Virus record (IMG/VR): IMGVR_UViG_2609459792_000007
Strand: one strand, 5' to 3'
Length of the DNA stretch: 64,000 nucleotides
DNA from: a virus
Taxonomy: Duplodnaviria > Heunggongvirae > Uroviricota > Caudoviricetes
The position numbers and the translations under genes were made by a program. How positions within the stretch are numbered: the first letter of the stretch is position 1; every line of letters starts with the position of its first letter. Positions 3,875-64,000 of this stretch are shown piece after piece. Below the pieces are notes generated by a model. It searched no databases. It saw nothing but the letters and a program-made list of their open reading frames with translations, and was not told the DNA's origin.

Positions 3875-4186
3875 ATGAAAAAATCATTGGTTCTTGGTCT
3901 GGACAAAGACCAGAAGAGAAAAGAGAAGCCTGCGCTGGTTGCTCAATTAACTTTGCTGGACATCGTTGCCAATGGAACCTCTATTCGTCTGTTCCGTGAA
4001 ACAGCGGTGTCTTTCGATAAAAACACCTTTACTCGTTATGTAATGAATGTTCGTCGCCAGCGTGGAAAAGGCTGGGTGGCATTTCAAAGAATGTGGCCGG
4101 AACATCAGCTCGAACTGGCTTTGATGGAAGTTAACCGCGTGGCCCAGCAAGAGATTCAGAGAGCATCAGTGATGGCAATAGCCTGA
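3875..4186 (+). CDS. hypothetical basic protein
   Basis: ATG 3875 with RBS acggag; ORF track start 3845 lies inside the operator. Confidence 0.55.
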   Translation: MKKSLVLGLDKDQKRKEKPALVAQLTLLDIVANGTSIRLFRETAVSFDKNTFTRYVMNVRRQRGKGWVAFQRMWPEHQLELALMEVNRVAQQEIQRASVMAIA

Positions 4187-6021: not shown

Positions 6022-6504
6022 ATGAATTTTATCGCTACTGTAAACGCACCCGCACATGGCAATATCGCTGTAACGTTCTCTGACATTGAAAAACGAGTAC
6101 TTGGTGCATGGCGCGACAATGAGACGGTAGAACTGTCAGCACAAGAAAAATGCATTATTGCACGCGACATCATTGGCAATCGTCGTTACTCGCGGGTATT
6201 TGAGAAAGCGTATGTGGTAAATTCTGGGTTCGGAACGTTCGTCTTTCCGGTGCGCTCCGGGCGATTCTGCCAGTCCAAGCTGATTGAGTTCGCTACGCAG
6301 ATTTCTGTCTGGATTAAAACTCAATCGTCGTTCAAATTTTCCGACGATGAAGCAGTATCGCAGGGGATGCGGATCGCCAACAATGCGATTAAATGCAAAA
6401 ACATTACGTATACCGCTGGCGTTGACACATGGAAACTGTTTTGCGCTAACTTTATGCTGAATGTATACGCAAGCAACCGCATCCACATCCTTGATGGCGT
6501 GTAA
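6022..6504 (+). CDS. hypothetical protein (160 aa)
   Basis: ATG with RBS aaggaa; preceded by promoter/operator module. Confidence 0.65.
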   Translation: MNFIATVNAPAHGNIAVTFSDIEKRVLGAWRDNETVELSAQEKCIIARDIIGNRRYSRVFEKAYVVNSGFGTFVFPVRSGRFCQSKLIEFATQISVWIKTQSSFKFSDDEAVSQGMRIANNAIKCKNITYTAGVDTWKLFCANFMLNVYASNRIHILDGV

Positions 6505-54267: not shown

Positions 54268-54466
54268 GCGGGAGAAGGAAACGCTTCATGAAATCAGTAA
54301 GTGGCCGGAGTTCCCTGAGTACTGGAAGCCTAAAACGCGGGCTAAGTTAGAGCGGTTAGGGTTGGTTGCAAACGTTTCTGAAACGTGGTGTTCGGCCAAC
54401 TACCAGTTAACTGATAAAGGGAAAGTATTGCTACAGCAATTAGTAGAATCAGGAGCGTTAAAATGA
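54251..54466 (+). CDS. hypothetical protein (71 aa)
   Basis: ORF with RBS gaaggag. Confidence 0.45.
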   Translation: MIVLSKREKETLHEISKWPEFPEYWKPKTRAKLERLGLVANVSETWCSANYQLTDKGKVLLQQLVESGALK

Positions 54467-54615
54467 TTCCATACATCTCATTAGCTTTTATGGGTGGCTT
54501 CCTTATTGGCTTCGGCATCTGTCGTGATTTAATTAAGCAGGAACTTAAAACCAAAACACTGTGCATCGGAAAGCGTGTGTATCGGGTAGTTCATGAAACA
54601 AAGGTTAGAAAATGA
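54463..54615 (+). CDS. small membrane protein (50 aa), paralogue-like, not in ORF track
   Basis: RBS aggagcg; starts with the ATGATTCCATACATC word; TM helix then RVYRVVHET. Confidence 0.35.
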   Translation: MIPYISLAFMGGFLIGFGICRDLIKQELKTKTLCIGKRVYRVVHETKVRK

Positions 54616-54933: not shown

Positions 54934-55681
54934 TTATATGTATAAGATGACTTTGTTTTCGTTGAGACGCGACTGTTTGAACTTAAATACAAGTGCAAAC
55001 GAAGAAGTCTATCTGGCAGTAGCCTAATAAGCCAAACACCAGCGAGGTCAGTTTCCAGCCTCGTTACCGAAATGGGACACACTGAGCGAGTGTGATTGCA
55101 GAACGCAGGAGGGAACATTCATGTTCCCTCCGATGAAGTAACAGAATGGGCGGTTGGTATATTTTCAACTCCATATGACTCCCGGATTCTTAGCCACTGA
55201 CCGCCCATTCTGTTACGTCATTTTGTTCAATTATGTCGTTTATACTGGGTTAAAAAGCGGCGACGTAGCCCGGCTGGTATGGTCAGCCAGCACACAACGT
55301 TGAGGCCATTACATTTTTATCAATTCTAAGGTTCTATTCACAGAGATACCGGCGAGCGTTGATATGTAACATGTTGGGCAAACATTCAATCGGAGTAGTG
55401 GCCTCAACGTTGTGAAAATAGGATAGTTGTGTAGGTTTAACCACTGTTGCCATTGGTACCTGTTTTCACAACAAATGATTCCATACATCACATTGTATAA
55501 ATTACAAAGTAGGTGCTGTCCTCAGAAACATCATCTACTTAAATAATTTGCCTTCTACTATTGAGCGAAGTCGAAAGCGTCTGGCACTAACGAAAAGTGC
55601 AAGTAGCGGTGCGTTTCCTGGCAGAAACTAACACCGCCGCGATTGGCACTGTTGAGTAATAAATACTGGCAGTGCTGAATT

Positions 55682-55756
55682 GATGGTGTAGCTCAGCGGT
55701 AGAGCAGTTGGCTGTTAACCAACTGGTCGGTGGTTCGAATCCACCCACCATCGCCA
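55682..55756 (+). tRNA. tRNA-Asn (anticodon GTT)
   Basis: Manual cloverleaf: acceptor gatggtg/caccatc, D arm gctc-agcggta-gagc, anticodon loop ctGTTaa, T loop ttcgaat. Confidence 0.85.
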
Positions 55757-55761
55757 ATTTA

Positions 55762-55848
55762 GGGGAGTTAGTCCGTAGAGGTAGCGGGGTAGACTGTAAA
55801 TCTACTGTCATGGAGACTCGGGTGGTTCGACTCCATCACTCCCCACCA
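55762..55848 (+). tRNA. tRNA-Tyr (anticodon GTA), long variable arm
   Basis: Acceptor ggggagt/actcccc, anticodon stem-loop gtaga-ctGTAaa-tctac, long variable arm, T loop ttcgact, 3' CCA. Confidence 0.7.
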
Positions 55849-55852
55849 AATT

Positions 55853-55928
55853 GCCGGTTTAGCTCAGTTGGTAGAGCGCCTGCCTTGTAAGCAGGATGTC
55901 AGCGGTTCGAGTCCGTTAACCGGCACCA
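55853..55928 (+). tRNA. tRNA-Thr (anticodon TGT)
   Basis: Acceptor gccggtt/aaccggc, D arm gctc-agttggta-gagc, anticodon loop ctTGTaa, T loop ttcgagt, 3' CCA. Confidence 0.8.
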
Positions 55929-56152
55929 ATACAACGATAAGATCATTACGGTTAATCGTCGTTCATGTGCACAATGACTGGTCGAAAGGTAGTGATCTTA
56001 CCGTTGTGGTGGATTCGCAGACTGATGCGATAGCTTTCTTGGATGTTAGGGAAATGCGGCCGCAAATCTTCCCTTTCGCGAGCGGTGATCGTCCGTAGTC
56101 CTAATTGGCTGCACCGTATGCCGGAGATTCAGTACCGGCCACCACAACGGCC

Positions 56153-56239
56153 GGAGAGTAGGGAGCATGGTGCTCAAGCGGTCTTGAAAACCGTCCCATT
56201 GCGCAAGCGATGATGGTTCGATTCCATTACTCTCCGCCA
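56153..56239 (+). tRNA. tRNA-Ser (anticodon TGA), long variable arm
   Basis: Acceptor ggagagt/actctcc, anticodon stem-loop gcggt-ctTGAaa-accgt, long variable arm, T loop ttcgatt, 3' CCA. Confidence 0.7.
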
Positions 56240-56396
56240 GACACAGCGTTGAGCGGTTTGGCCTTTTAATCAACTCGATTAAGACTCCGCTAACATAAAC
56301 CAGACCGCTCAACGCTGTGATAGACAATTACGGCAGACGTTCTTAACCATAGCTTGCTAACATCCTAGCAACACTTTTTTTCAGCGCAAAATTCAA

Positions 56397-56423
56397 AGGG
56401 GCTTCGGCCCCTTTTTTGCAACT
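56397..56423 (+). terminator. rho-independent terminator after tRNA cluster
   Basis: aaaggggc-ttcg-gcccctttt followed by ttgc. Confidence 0.85.
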
Positions 56424-56460
56424 GAAAGAGTCAAGTCTACGAACTTTGTAGGGAGAAATA

Positions 56461-56811
56461 ATGACCAGCAAAGAGAACACACCACTAAAAGTCACCCCTG
56501 AACACATTGAACAACTCATTCAAAGTGAACATTATTTCACTGCATATGATGCCAGCCACGGGGATAACTTCATCTCTGTTTACAATTCAAAAACAGATAT
56601 CGACAAAGGTCATGAGTCGTTAAAACTCTTAACGTTCTGCGTTATGGTTCTCAAAAATGGATATACCGTAACGGGAAAATCTGCGTGCGTAAGACCAGAA
56701 ATCTTCAACTTTGATGTTGGTCGTGAGTACGCTCGAAAAGATGCTATCGATCAAATCTGGCCCCTGGAAGGCTATCTCCTGAAGCAAAAGTGGCATGAGG
56801 CAAAGCAATGA
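56461..56811 (+). CDS. hypothetical protein (116 aa)
   Basis: ORF with RBS gggagaaataATG; coupled to glutaredoxin gene. Confidence 0.5.
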   Translation: MTSKENTPLKVTPEHIEQLIQSEHYFTAYDASHGDNFISVYNSKTDIDKGHESLKLLTFCVMVLKNGYTVTGKSACVRPEIFNFDVGREYARKDAIDQIWPLEGYLLKQKWHEAKQ

Positions 56812-57053
56812 CGATCACTATCTACGGACGAGATAACTGCTCATACTGCAAACGTGCGGTCGAGCTGGCGAAGCAACTAAAGGGACATGGCTACGGTGAT
56901 TATGAGTACATAGACATCACCACTGCCGGTATCGACAAGAAAAAACTAAGTGAAATTGTTGGTAAACCGGTAGAGACTATCCCCCAAGTACTGATCGATG
57001 GTCAACCGATTGGCGGATACACAGAACTGGCTGCATACGTCAGCACCCTCTGA
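56808..57053 (+). CDS. glutaredoxin-like (NrdH-type) redox protein
   Basis: CSYC active-site motif near N-terminus; 81 aa. Confidence 0.75.
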   Translation: MTITIYGRDNCSYCKRAVELAKQLKGHGYGDYEYIDITTAGIDKKKLSEIVGKPVETIPQVLIDGQPIGGYTELAAYVSTL

Positions 57054-57131
57054 TTTTAACGGCTCACAGGAGCCGTTTTTATTACCACCAAACTCACTCC
57101 CATTTCCCTTAAAATTCAAAAAACAACGTCA

Positions 57132-57164
57132 AAATGATTCCATACCTACTATGTATGGAATCAT
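57132..57164. other. candidate site-specific recombination site: perfect 13-7-13 inverted repeat
   Basis: AATGATTCCATAC-ctactat-GTATGGAATCATT, 100 bp upstream of tyrosine recombinase gene. Confidence 0.55.
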
Positions 57165-57217
57165 TAGTGAAAATGAGTTACTTTTACTCTTGATCCTATA
57201 AGAATCTATGCCTAATA

Positions 57218-57237
57218 TACTGTTTACTTATACAGTG
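57218..57237. promoter_or_regulatory. LexA-box-like sequence upstream of recombinase gene
   Basis: TACTGT-ttacttat-ACAGTG fits CTGT-N8-ACAG; 27 bp upstream of ATG 57264. Confidence 0.45.
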
Positions 57238-57263
57238 AATCGGCGTAACTCGGTGATTGTCAT

Positions 57264-58367
57264 ATGAAAAATAGCTTTGACAGAGCACGCGCTGCGGAGA
57301 ACACCTCAAAAGAGGCGATTGAGTATCTCGAAAGAGCATCTCAAATGCAGGCCGTTATGATCTCGCAGGTTAGCATTGATATGAGATTCTCGGACGCATT
57401 CATGTTATTCACTCGCTTATCTCTGCTGATAACCAGACGTCGGCCAGAGATCGCTGTTCATTGTATTTTGATACATGTTTTGCCGCACATTGCCGATGTA
57501 AAAGTAAGTGACATTAATAGGTTCATGGTGAACCAGCTGGTCAACCCACTAATACTGGATGGCAAAATTGTTATGGGCCGCCGCGTTTTCTCTCTGATGA
57601 AACAGTTCCTTAGCTGGTGCGCCTTCCAGGGGATGATAGACGTGTCACCGTTAAACGATATGTCACTAAACAAAGTTGCCGGTGGCGCAAAGCCCACACC
57701 TCGCGAGCGGAAGCTGACCGACGCAGAGGTATGGGTGTTCTGGAATATATGGGACTACTTCAATGTGTGCGCTGGTACAAAATGGGCGGCCAGGCTGTGT
57801 CTTGTATCAGCAAGACGACCTGACGAAGTACTGCGGGCTAAAAAAAGTGAGTTCAATCTTAAGCGTGGGGTTTGGAATCAAGGCAAGAGAAACAAGTCAG
57901 CACGTGAGCATTCGCTGCCTTTAAGCACATTAATGCGCACATGCATTGAAGAGTTGTTCGAATACGGTAAAGACAGCCAGTGGCTCGTGCCTTCGAATAA
58001 AAAAATCGGGAAAGACCTTCCTATGTCTAAAGTGGCAATAGCCCAGGCATTACGTCGTATTCTGGAACGACCAGAACTGATGGAGCTTGAGCCATTTACA
58101 CCCCGAGATTTGCGCCGTACTGCGCGTAGTTACTTCCCAGCATTAGGCATAAGCCAGGAGGTATCACGCAAAATCATGAACCACAGTCTTGAGGGGATAG
58201 ATCGGGTCTACGACCGGCACGATTATATGGACGAGATGCGAGACGCCTTAGAAAGTTTCTCGACGTACATCGCATCAATCGTAGAGCAACCGGATTTAGA
58301 CGAAATTGACCACAAATTCAAGGGAGATCGTCTATCAACAGAGCTTATTCGTGTAAATTTTTCATAG
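57264..58367 (+). CDS. tyrosine recombinase / integrase family protein
   Basis: C-terminal catalytic-domain-like residues (ARRPDE, DLRRTARSY, MNHS, RVYDRHDY). Confidence 0.7.
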   Translation: MKNSFDRARAAENTSKEAIEYLERASQMQAVMISQVSIDMRFSDAFMLFTRLSLLITRRRPEIAVHCILIHVLPHIADVKVSDINRFMVNQLVNPLILDGKIVMGRRVFSLMKQFLSWCAFQGMIDVSPLNDMSLNKVAGGAKPTPRERKLTDAEVWVFWNIWDYFNVCAGTKWAARLCLVSARRPDEVLRAKKSEFNLKRGVWNQGKRNKSAREHSLPLSTLMRTCIEELFEYGKDSQWLVPSNKKIGKDLPMSKVAIAQALRRILERPELMELEPFTPRDLRRTARSYFPALGISQEVSRKIMNHSLEGIDRVYDRHDYMDEMRDALESFSTYIASIVEQPDLDEIDHKFKGDRLSTELIRVNFS

Positions 58368-58748
58368 AGACTTTATGGCCTCAACAACCTTTTGTGATGC
58401 GCCTTTCTCTTTACCGAATCGCTCGTTATACGCAGCAAGAACCTGTTTTTCGTCCTCGTTAAGAGGAGCGGTGCCTTCTTTGTATAAAAATGCTGCGAGT
58501 TCAGGTTGGCGTTCTTCCAGCACCATCATCATAAGACGACTTGGTTCAATACCCAGCGCCAGCGCCAGCGGACGAACCTTATCGATAGGCAAAGGAATTT
58601 TGCCACTTTTAATTAAAGAAAGGTTGTTGGCATTTTTATAACCAATAAGTCTGGCTATTTGGGCCTGACTCATAGGTGAGGATTCAATCAGCCCTGCGAT
58701 AAAAGCAGCATAGCGACTTTCTATAAATTCAATCTTGTTGTCAGACAT
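58362..58748 (-). CDS. XRE-family helix-turn-helix transcriptional regulator
   Basis: HTH-like segment SQAQIARLIGYKNANNLSLIKSGK in a 128-aa protein. Confidence 0.7.
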   Translation of the reverse strand: MSDNKIEFIESRYAAFIAGLIESSPMSQAQIARLIGYKNANNLSLIKSGKIPLPIDKVRPLALALGIEPSRLMMMVLEERQPELAAFLYKEGTAPLNEDEKQVLAAYNERFGKEKGASQKVVEAIKSL

Positions 58749-58786
58749 TGTTACAACCTTTGCGCGTTTAATTCTCTCTGGTAAGT

Positions 58787-58800
58787 GCTTACCGATATTA
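58787..58800. promoter_or_regulatory. palindrome GGTAAG-TG-CTTACC upstream of regulator gene
   Basis: Perfect dyad about 40 bp upstream of the regulator start; related to family B. Confidence 0.45.
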
Positions 58801-58999
58801 CATCAAAGGTTAGGGTTGTAAAGCTATTATCATTTTTTTCGGCAGGCACTTGTAAGACCGAGCAAAGGTCCATGCATGGAGAAAAACTAGCCCAAAATAG
58901 GTAAGAAAATTAACTTGCATCTGATATAGATGTATTCAGTATTGATACAAATTTTAGTAGTATTCCTTACCATAGTATAAGTTAGAATGGATTGATTGA

Positions 59000-59212
59000 A
59001 TGAAAACCACTATTTCCAGCCTAATCGCTCTTGAGATCGGACACGTACAGAAATTAGCTGATGAGTGTGTAGCTGACATCCTCACCGATCTACCGAATGA
59101 GCAGATTCAGGTTGGTGTGAATGACACAACTGGCTTTATATTCGAACTTAACAACAAACGCTTCACGCTTCTCAATACCGGCTCCGGGTCTTTAGCCGTC
59201 AGAATCTGTTAA
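59000..59212 (+). CDS. possible small protein (70 aa)
   Basis: ORF in AT-rich intergenic region; followed by hairpin ctgcgcgaa...ttcgcgcag. Confidence 0.3.
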   Translation: MKTTISSLIALEIGHVQKLADECVADILTDLPNEQIQVGVNDTTGFIFELNNKRFTLLNTGSGSLAVRIC

Positions 59213-62929: not shown

Positions 62930-64000
62930 ATGAAGGCACTGATGGTTCGAACTGACTTCTCACTTGGGGAGTCGGCTCTAAAAGCAGAAAACGCGGTGAA
63001 GATTGCCAGAGAAGCTGGCTACACCGCTGTAATTTCAGCAGATAGCATGAATATTGCGAGCGTTATTCCACTACAACGTGCCGCTGGTGACGACATGGCG
63101 GTTATTTGTGGTGTGAAACTAAACATTGTTGATGATCCCACATACGAGCACCGGGCTAAACTTGCTAAAGAATCTATGAGATGTATGGAATCATTAGAGC
63201 GGGGACGTAACTACTCGTTTACCGCTCTAATTAAAAATGAGCAAGGATATCGCGACATCTGCGAACTAATGACGGCGGCCAACACACGAGAACAGTTCTA
63301 CTTTGTACCGCGTCTCTCGCTCGAACAGTTGGTTTCTACATATGCCAAAGGCAACATCATCCTGCTTACTTCCGACATCGGTAGCGTGTTCCAACGCAAC
63401 GATTTTGCAAAAATCATAAGCACACTGATTACAGCGGGTGGAAAAGACAACTTCTATAGTGTGGTTTATCCGCACCCTACCCCATTCTACGACCAGATTA
63501 ACGTCCGGGCGATGAAAGTCGCCAGCGCATTGAAAATAGAGCCAGTGGCGTTCTATCCCGCTTATTACGAATCGATCGACGATGCAGACATTAAAGACAT
63601 TGCGCACATGGTTACGAACAACATAAAAATCGACCAGCCGCATCGTCTGCGTATCCCCCACCAGCGAGATAACGCCGTCAATGGTCGCCGCCATCTCCTT
63701 GAGGCGCTTAAAGCCTTCTCCGTTCGCATGGATGTGCCGGTAACAGCTGCAATGGCCTCAACAACGCAGGACTCCATTATCGAAGCCTGTACATGGCGCT
63801 GGCATGAATTGCCACCAGCACTGCCCAAGATGGCAGACGACGAGCCTGCAACGCTGATGAAACTGGCTGTTGCAGGGCTGCGCAAACGTCTTACCACAAA
63901 AGAGTTTGGCTACACACCACCGGCTTCTGAGAACAGGGTTTATGTTGAGCGACTTAAGTACGAAATGGACACGCTTACTCGCCTGGGATTTTGTGGTTAC
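62930..64000 (+). CDS. DNA polymerase III alpha-like protein, N-terminal PHP region (3' end outside window)
   Basis: Open frame from ATG 62930 (RBS aaagg) to window end, absent from ORF track because it has no stop; layout resembles DnaE N-terminus. Confidence 0.6.
   Translation, partial: MKALMVRTDFSLGESALKAENAVKIAREAGYTAVISADSMNIASVIPLQRAAGDDMAVICGVKLNIVDDPTYEHRAKLAKESMRCMESLERGRNYSFTALIKNEQGYRDICELMTAANTREQFYFVPRLSLEQLVSTYAKGNIILLTSDIGSVFQRNDFAKIISTLITAGGKDNFYSVVYPHPTPFYDQINVRAMKVASALKIEPVAFYPAYYESIDDADIKDIAHMVTNNIKIDQPHRLRIPHQRDNAVNGRRHLLEALKAFSVRMDVPVTAAMASTTQDSIIEACTWRWHELPPALPKMADDEPATLMKLAVAGLRKRLTTKEFGYTPPASENRVYVERLKYEMDTLTRLGFCGY

Follow-up and report, generated by a model that had tools for sequence, protein, structure and literature searches.

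An SSU5-like phage-plasmid appears to place its tyrosine recombinase under the direct control of the host SOS response, through a LexA operator that overlaps the recombinase promoter. We estimate a probability of about 80% that this box is a genuine LexA operator that works on the recombinase promoter. Directly shown are the motif, its conservation, its position, the plasmid-only occurrence of the recombinase module and correlated expression in a near-identical element. The first-pass annotation had proposed that a LexA operator on this promoter ties the recombinase to DNA damage, and the proposal gains support from the strength of the motif, from a footprint of at least 25 distinct boxes, from the position of the box relative to a conserved -10 hexamer and from published expression of a 97%-identical element. 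A literature search found no paper describing a LexA box at this recombinase gene, which is not proof that none exists; in one paper, pHCM2, pMT1 and LexA appear solely as input genomes (PMC1525208).

The element and the surroundings of the recombinase gene

By sequence comparison the window, that is, the whole 64-kb stretch of viral DNA that was analysed and to which all positions refer, belongs to the SSU5-like phage-plasmids and shares 97% identity with Escherichia phage Cyrano. E. coli LF82 carries Cyrano as its plasmid prophage pLF82, at ~5.5 copies per cell (PMC9928086). Over the 3 kb around the box, identity is 94-98% to Cyrano (OV696614), two CMS-2020a records and PhiR41_1, and ~74% to Klebsiella phage-plasmids of 110 kb, among them pJN2-26 and vB_Kpn_1825-KPC53. 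Four tRNA genes, a gp49-like gene and a glutaredoxin gene (ending at 57053) are followed by a terminator, a 210-bp intergenic region and the recombinase gene, beyond which lie a convergent gene for an HTH regulator, a divergent 70-aa ORF and cobT. Three tRNA genes are annotated in Cyrano (Asn, Thr, Ser) and one in SSU5. The features of the region are these, with column counts taken over 53 distinct aligned upstream sequences that have a long leader:

55682-56239: tRNA cluster of four genes (Asn, Tyr, Thr, Ser), 5' of the gp49-like and glutaredoxin genes
57058-57087, + strand: intrinsic terminator after the glutaredoxin gene; 8-pair stem AACGGCTC/GAGCCGTT, loop of 4, then TTTATTACCA
57133-57165, no strand: 33-bp palindrome AATGATTCCATAC-CTACTAT-GTATGGAATCATT, a perfect 13-bp inverted repeat with a 7-bp spacer
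57190-57195, + strand: putative -35 hexamer TTGATC (T53 T52 G52 A53 T44 C51 of 53; adjacent columns vary)
57213-57218, + strand: putative -10 hexamer TAATAT (T52 A43 A53 T41 A52 T52 of 53)
57218-57237, no strand: putative LexA operator (SOS box) TACTGTTTACTTATACAGTG, called from motif score and conservation; spans the predicted transcription start region
57252-57256, + strand: Shine-Dalgarno-like GGTGA, 7 nt before the ATG (G57255 in 53/53, A57256 in 49/53)
57264-58367, + strand: tyrosine recombinase gene, 367 aa, Pfam PF00589, annotated as 'integrase' in relatives
58362-58748, - strand: HTH regulator gene, 128 aa, without an S24 domain; convergent, its 3' end overlapping the recombinase gene by 6 nt

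The terminator insulates the recombinase gene against transcription from upstream, which argues that the gene needs a promoter of its own. An Rfam search of 57000-57300 returned no RNA element.

Salmonella phage SSU5 (8743-8804, compared with window 55758-59212) is without a 3.45-kb block that comprises three tRNA genes, the gp49-like and glutaredoxin genes, the palindrome, the recombinase gene, the HTH repressor candidate and the 70-aa ORF. Because SSU5, which was isolated as a phage, is without the whole of this block, the comparison is consistent with a lysogeny and maintenance module that SSU5, as a derivative without its lysogeny module, no longer carries.

A strong LexA-type motif at a putative -10 hexamer

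The 20-mer at 57218-57237 reads TACTGT-TTACTTAT-ACAGTG, with CTGT at 57220-23 and ACAG at 57232-35, and its sequence is exactly the CTGT-N8-ACAG match that had been described in the first-pass annotation. The eight-base spacer contains seven A or T residues, and a 16-bp core within a 20-bp palindrome fits an E. coli-type LexA operator. The distance from the box to the recombinase start, given earlier as 27 bp, is right within one base: 26 nt separate the box from the ATG at 57264. Taken alone, the bare 16-mer pattern is weak evidence, because the window contains 2 matches where 0.8 are expected and 20 of 100 shuffled sequences also reach at least 2. The other match, at 3989-4004 (CTGTTCCGTGAAACAG), has a GC-rich spacer, lies outside the top 25 matrix scores and is most likely a chance occurrence.

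For a full-length comparison, 27 E. coli LexA operators described in the literature served to construct a position weight matrix, whose scores are approximate. On that approximate scale the box reaches 22.0-22.3 bits, near the middle of the 12-25 bits spanned by the 27 training operators, and an analogue of the heterology index, calculated with the same approximate matrix, is ~5.4. The runner-up 20-mer in the 64 kb reaches 11.9 bits, which makes the box the sole strong LexA-type site in the window. The best score over 30 mononucleotide shuffles of the window was 17.9 bits, and 2 of 1000 first-order Markov simulations of the window reached the score of the box. A search of the window with the idealised 20-mer TACTGTATATATATACAGTA, allowing 3 mismatches, returned no match because the box differs from that sequence at 4 positions, all of them of low information.

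The two hexamers upstream of the recombinase gene are 17 bp apart. Across the 53 aligned sequences the spacer between them drifts while TTGA(T/C)C and TAATAT are near-invariant, and it is from this conservation that we infer a sigma-70 promoter for the recombinase gene. TTGATC-17-TAATAT agrees with the consensus at 8 of 12 positions (4/6 + 4/6), and a promoter scan with a threshold of 9/12 did not list it because 8/12 falls under that threshold. The last T of the -10 hexamer is the first base of the LexA box. Because the box begins there, the predicted start of transcription (~57225) would lie within the operator, in the classic LexA geometry.

The half-sites are conserved while the spacer drifts

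We scanned IMG/VR for the upstream palindrome and obtained 114 stretches, which with earlier loci make 121 oriented sites; these collapse to 61 distinct upstream sequences whose recombinases are 57-100% identical. Of the 61, 53 have a box that scores 19.6-28.4 bits and is always placed 52-55 nt beyond the palindrome core, and the relatives together carry more than 25 distinct box sequences. Conservation within the box, over the 53 long-leader sequences, is as follows:

57220-22, CTG: 53/53
57223, T: 49/53
57226, A (box position 9): 53/53
57227-29, spacer columns: three alleles each
57230, A (box position 13): 53/53
57232, A: 52/53
57233-35, CAG: 53/53

Invariant half-sites around a variable spacer are the signature expected of selection on the bases that LexA reads. 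Elements from Escherichia, Klebsiella, Kluyvera and Yersinia pestis retain TACTGT...ACAG(T/C) with differing spacers. When the Klebsiella pJN2-26 box (TACTGTATATAAACACAGTA) is aligned with those of Cyrano and PhiR41_1, its half-sites are identical and its spacer is different; the Kluyvera box reads TACTGTTTATACATACAGTA and the Y. pestis box TACTGTTCATGCATACAGTT. Further, a Klebsiella plasmid with a 59%-identical recombinase has TACTGTATATGCATACAGTT amid otherwise diverged DNA, and Buttiauxella has a weakened CTGA-N8-ACAG of 13 bits.

Seven distinct sequences carry no box; they belong to a clade in which the recombinases are ~56-61% identical and the leader is 47-62 nt long. The Moellerella and Pantoea homologues have no LexA box either. 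Because these three groups are without it, the box would be a regulatory add-on of one large Enterobacteriaceae clade and not part of the recombination machinery, and LexA control appears not to be essential to this recombinase family. At the box position, Moellerella pW18-2-b (~2462-2480; 47%-identical homologue) carries another palindrome, TTACTTCAATAAGTAA / ATTTACTTCAATAAGTAAT. The corresponding place in the promoter may there be used by another regulator; the Pantoea plasmids have no palindrome at that position.

We also examined a complete close relative, the 109,910-bp replicon pG749_2, whose recombinase is 99.7% identical. Two of its sites exceed 15 bits: the recombinase box and TACTGTATATGCATACAGTA (25.6 bits; L016 ~6130-6149, record 56030-56049). 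The second site lies immediately 5' of a gene whose 129-aa product, a UmuD'-like protein, hits the HumD equivalog of NCBIfam; the locus is ~2.2 kb outside the window. UmuD'-like proteins such as that encoded by humD serve a canonical SOS function. Because close relatives carry this very strong LexA box before humD, the replicon as a whole appears to be wired into the host SOS regulon.

The recombinase transcript rises with the SOS regulon in Cyrano

Published RNA-seq data for Cyrano allow the recombinase to be followed under conditions that the authors describe as genotoxic and SOS-inducing, namely the interior of macrophages (PMC9928086). The log2 values below, from tables S1 and S4 of that paper, compare bacteria alone at 6 h with bacteria inside macrophages at 6 h; the libraries may not be strand-specific.

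Recombinase CYRAN_44: 6.07 to 10.3 (PMC9928086)
dinI: 5.8 to 10.2 (PMC9928086)
umuD: 4.1 to 8.9 (PMC9928086)
umuC: 3.4 to 6.4 (PMC9928086)
sulA: 7.3 to 9.85 (PMC9928086)
Cyrano humD (CYRAN_98): 9.1 to 12.2 (PMC9928086)

CYRAN_44 rises by 4.2 log2, or ~19-fold, alongside dinI, umuDC and sulA, which is a correlation (PMC9928086). Most structural and replication genes of Cyrano shift by less than 1.5 log2 in macrophages, a few structural genes (e.g. those for the major capsid protein and two tail proteins) rise by ~4 log2, and no Cyrano virions appear above background (PMC9928086). Because no virions are made there, the rise of CYRAN_44 is not a by-product of productive lytic growth. About 10 of the 123 Cyrano genes rise by at least 4 log2, among them the box-less hicAB, CYRAN_46 and CYRAN_60/61 (PMC9928086). 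Other inputs to the recombinase exist, since CYRAN_44 is also raised at 1 h in medium (7.9) while umuD is not, and repression is leaky, since basal expression of CYRAN_44 in overnight LB is ~5x the prophage median (49.5 vs 9.8) (PMC9928086).

The recombinase and its putative target site

The 367-aa protein matches Pfam PF00589 (Phage_integrase) at 39.7 bits against a cutoff of 27.1. Residues R184, K211, R281-D-L-R284, H307 and Y316 are invariant among 7 homologues that are 45-100% identical; the first residue of the HxxR motif is R in place of H, a deviation. A PDB search with the recombinase gave no sequence match to any solved structure. Its sole NCBIfam match is the generic P4-type integrase domain PRK09692 (33.7 bits against a cutoff of 434, profile positions 137-393), in which the N-terminal arm-binding domain of P4-type integrases is unmatched; no integron-integrase model in NCBIfam matched, and no attC-like array was seen. 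Among 5426 complete E. coli genomes, 252 carry the module, at 255 places, all 255 of them on plasmids and none in a chromosome. We considered chromosomal integration as the role of the enzyme and, because 0 of 255 copies are chromosomal, rejected it for E. coli. On the strength of this plasmid-only occurrence, the adjacent palindrome and the profile matches, the enzyme is probably a plasmid recombinase of the lox/dif kind, for which the resolution of multimers is the first guess, and not a chromosomal integrase.

The palindrome lies 53 bp upstream of the box and 24 bp upstream of the -35 hexamer. Every recombinase homologue examined has a 12/13-7-12/13 site 5' of its gene, and the arm sequence changes in step with the recombinase clade: the arms are GATTCCATAC in elements of E. 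coli, Klebsiella and Yersinia, and GACTCC(A/C)GAC in a Moellerella phage-plasmid and Pantoea megaplasmids, whose proteins are ~46% identical. With two inverted arms, a spacer in the 6-8 bp range, no arm-type sites and a place beside the gene, the layout fits a site of the Cre/lox or Xer/dif type, and the palindrome is probably the lox-like core target of the adjacent recombinase. Its position also suggests possible autoregulation.

Several further observations concern the palindrome and the DNA around it. The 7-bp spacer (57146-57152) occurs in both orientations among close relatives (L002, which is PhiR41_1, L009, L011 and L072), in the pairs CTACTAT/ATAGTAG, CTATTAA/TTAATAG and TCTATAG/CTATAGA. 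Simple inversion, deletion or integration between sites does not yield such a flip; antiparallel synapsis and hairpin-mediated template switching are possibilities. The DNA left of the palindrome (window ~57030-57132; L001-L131) is hypervariable, with 31 unrelated contexts at 114 loci and at least 6 left contexts among elements whose recombinases are at least 98% identical; in some E. coli plasmids the edge of the palindrome is exactly where homology begins. A recurrent loose motif, CAGATTTnAAAAAA, stands 10-28 bp left of the palindrome. In Cyrano, window 57032-57114 is replaced by 879 bp carrying CYRAN_43, its most highly expressed moron. We considered crossover within the palindrome as the source of the left-flank variation and did not retain it: because the replaced segment stops 18 bp short of the palindrome, the Cyrano case at least is not a clean site-specific event.

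Exact 12-mers of the arm occur five times in the window against 0.29 expected. Three are isolated copies of the form AATGATTCCATACATC(T/A)CAT, at 54461-54480 (+), 55473-55492 (+) and 63176-63195 (-); these are the sole extra copies in a 110-kb relative, and their positions are kept in Klebsiella and other clades. One of them starts a small ORF (MIPYI...) and another lies inside the 5' part of dnaE. They were considered as accessory sites of the recombinase and set aside, as SSU5 retains them though it is without recombinase and palindrome. In several relatives (L003, L006, L007 and L011), the recombinase gene encodes the invariant VWNQG motif of the enzyme, ~745 nt beyond the palindrome, with codons that read GTATGGAATCAA. 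On the opposite strand these nearly reproduce the enzyme's own binding arm, which may be a coincidence arising from coding constraint.

A proposed scheme for damage-responsive recombination

In the following scheme, the binding of LexA, the promoter with its start, the target of the enzyme and the type of reaction are inferred. In an undamaged cell, a LexA dimer on the box would keep the recombinase promoter at a low basal level. Upon DNA damage, RecA would be activated, LexA would cleave itself and the promoter would open, such that the recombinase would climb roughly 10-20-fold together with the SOS regulon. The recombinase would most likely act on the palindrome at 57133-57165 as a simple lox/dif-like site. 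With the host element replicating, as proposed, as a low-copy plasmid, the likely reaction would be recombination at the plasmid level (the resolution of multimers and, possibly, an exchange of the variable DNA on the left) and not chromosomal integration.

The repressor switch and alternative readings of the box

The first-pass annotation had also held that the recombinase would respond to damage without a CI-type switch. No lambda-type autocleavable S24 repressor is visible, and to that extent the statement stands; however, the convergent neighbour is a putative repressor. This 128-aa regulator, for which profile searches returned weak HTH matches and no S24 peptidase domain, is a homologue of Cyrano CYRAN_45, which is annotated as a putative (lysogeny) repressor and whose RNA in lysogens is ~10-fold above the prophage background (PMC9928086). 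Because of that annotation and that expression, the element does possess a repressor switch, beside which the LexA box would be a further direct input, not a substitute. The convergent arrangement of recombinase and regulator is kept in both box-bearing and box-less clades.

Between the HTH regulator gene and the 70-aa ORF, GGTAAG/CTTACC motifs, including the palindrome GGTAAGTGCTTACC, occur at 58780-58793, 58899-58905 and 58965-58971 and are candidate operators for the HTH repressor. A minus-strand promoter-like sequence, TTTACA-16-TAATAT at 58822-58795, overlaps this region.

It is doubtful that the promoter does more than serve resolvase housekeeping. Two wider roles can be imagined: (a) it could be the damage sensor of the phage-plasmid, through read-through into the gene for the non-cleavable HTH repressor, or (b) it could time an integron-like, stress-dependent exchange of cargo at the palindrome. 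The hypervariable left flank (31/114), the homology break at the palindrome and the occurrence of the spacer in both orientations fit the second of these.

The read-through role can also be taken as the main output of a real LexA operator, a reading that partly overlaps the one we prefer. Transcription from the recombinase promoter would continue into the convergent repressor gene, interference or antisense RNA would cut the repressor, and prophage induction would have its SOS sensor in the box. The 3' ends of the two genes share 6 nt, and beyond the recombinase gene the + strand offers a single terminator-like hairpin, a weak one within the repressor gene (58588-58604). Relatives conserve the convergent pair, and the phage-isolated SSU5 is without the whole recombinase-repressor block. 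Further, the whole related genome contains two strong LexA boxes, of which the other serves humD, and ciprofloxacin raises Cyrano virions 39-fold (PMC9928086), yet the repressor candidate has no S24 domain. By contrast, the box-less clade and Moellerella keep the convergent pair without LexA control, and in macrophages the ~19-fold rise of the recombinase is accompanied by no fall in repressor RNA (7.5 to 9.9) and by no virions. An undetected antirepressor or another route could mediate induction. The read-through reading is speculative throughout, and we judge it unlikely because nothing tested here demands it.

A LexA-box lookalike is a still less probable reading, and one that we consider quite unlikely: the palindrome at the box would be the operator of a phage regulator, such as the HTH neighbour, or an accessory site of the recombinase. 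Promoter-overlapping palindromes are common among phage operators, the gene next door encodes an HTH regulator, and TTACTTCAATAAGTAA at the equivalent place in Moellerella points to a position that is used by non-LexA regulation. However, what is conserved in the present clade is what LexA reads (CTG-N10-CAG, the T/A flanks and the A residues at positions 9 and 13), the scores equal those of bona fide LexA operators, and the only other such site in the related genome stands at humD. Moreover, the sequence of the box bears no relation to that of the recombinase arms (GATTCCATAC), and a phage repressor would be expected to bind in the immunity region (58749-58999), which contains no other copy of the box. 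That the palindrome arose by chance in AT-rich DNA between genes and regulates nothing is highly improbable: the bare pattern is indeed expected ~0.8 times per window, and 20/100 shuffles give at least 2, but the full-length score came up in 2/1000 simulations, and over 53 distinct sequences, in which recombinase identity goes down to 57%, both half-sites stay unchanged at a fixed offset while the DNA between and around them drifts.

Significance and comparison with known systems

SSU5-like phage-plasmids are common in clinical Enterobacteriaceae and carry resistance and toxin cargo. The module studied here is present in 4.6% of complete E. coli genomes and in KPC-carrying Klebsiella elements, and it matched a contig of Y. 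pestis NCTC5923. If the sole recombinase of such elements is SOS-induced, fluoroquinolones and trimethoprim would raise site-specific recombination while inducing the phage, with effects on plasmid stability, on multimer state and possibly on cargo exchange. Integrons being the first example, a LexA operator at this gene would also give a second and independent instance in which LexA directly controls the tyrosine recombinase of a mobile element.

LexA-dependent control is known for antC of N15, which encodes the antirepressor of that linear phage-plasmid, and for GIL01 (both cited in the review PMC11652158). As in those elements, a plasmid prophage would here use host LexA directly as its damage sensor, with no autocleavable CI. 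The LexA target in N15 and GIL01 is the lysis-lysogeny switch (the antirepressor or the lytic promoters), whereas here it would be the recombinase, and the link to induction is hypothetical.

As a phage-plasmid with a single tyrosine recombinase beside an inverted-repeat site that has 13-bp arms and an asymmetric spacer, the element finds what appears to be its closest analogue in the Cre-loxP system of P1. There, a 13-8-13 site stands next to cre and serves plasmid dimer resolution and genome cyclisation. The element studied here is likewise extrachromosomal (0/255 chromosomal copies). Its spacer is 7 bp where that of P1 is 8, its enzyme has no detectable relation to solved recombinases and the activity of that enzyme is putative; to our knowledge, cre of P1 is not under LexA control. 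A humD-type SOS gene, known from P1, is also carried by close relatives of our element, there with a second, very strong LexA box before it; it is another gene with another function, outside the window.

For the regulation itself, the integron intI genes appear to be the closest analogue. LexA-controlled integron integrase promoters were reportedly described by Guerin and colleagues in 2009. In intI1 and in intIA of the Vibrio cholerae superintegron, the LexA box overlaps the -10 hexamer and derepression is 6.5- to 9.3-fold (Cambray et al. 2011, PMC3108266), of the same order as the rise in Cyrano. In both systems a mobile element carries a LexA box of the E. coli type at a tyrosine recombinase promoter, in partial overlap with its -10 hexamer (here a putative one), and the gene is closely preceded by a recombination site (here the palindrome, as a putative one). 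Here the box is widespread and not universal, and integrons too show its loss and disruption (PMC3108266). The protein in our element differs in that it is not an integron integrase and has only a generic P4-type core match; its site is a double-stranded 13-7-13 palindrome, not attI/attC, and its gene is co-directional with site and promoter, where intI is divergent from the cassette array. The host is a phage-plasmid. The two would thus share the same regulatory logic while differing in recombinase family, type of site and host element.
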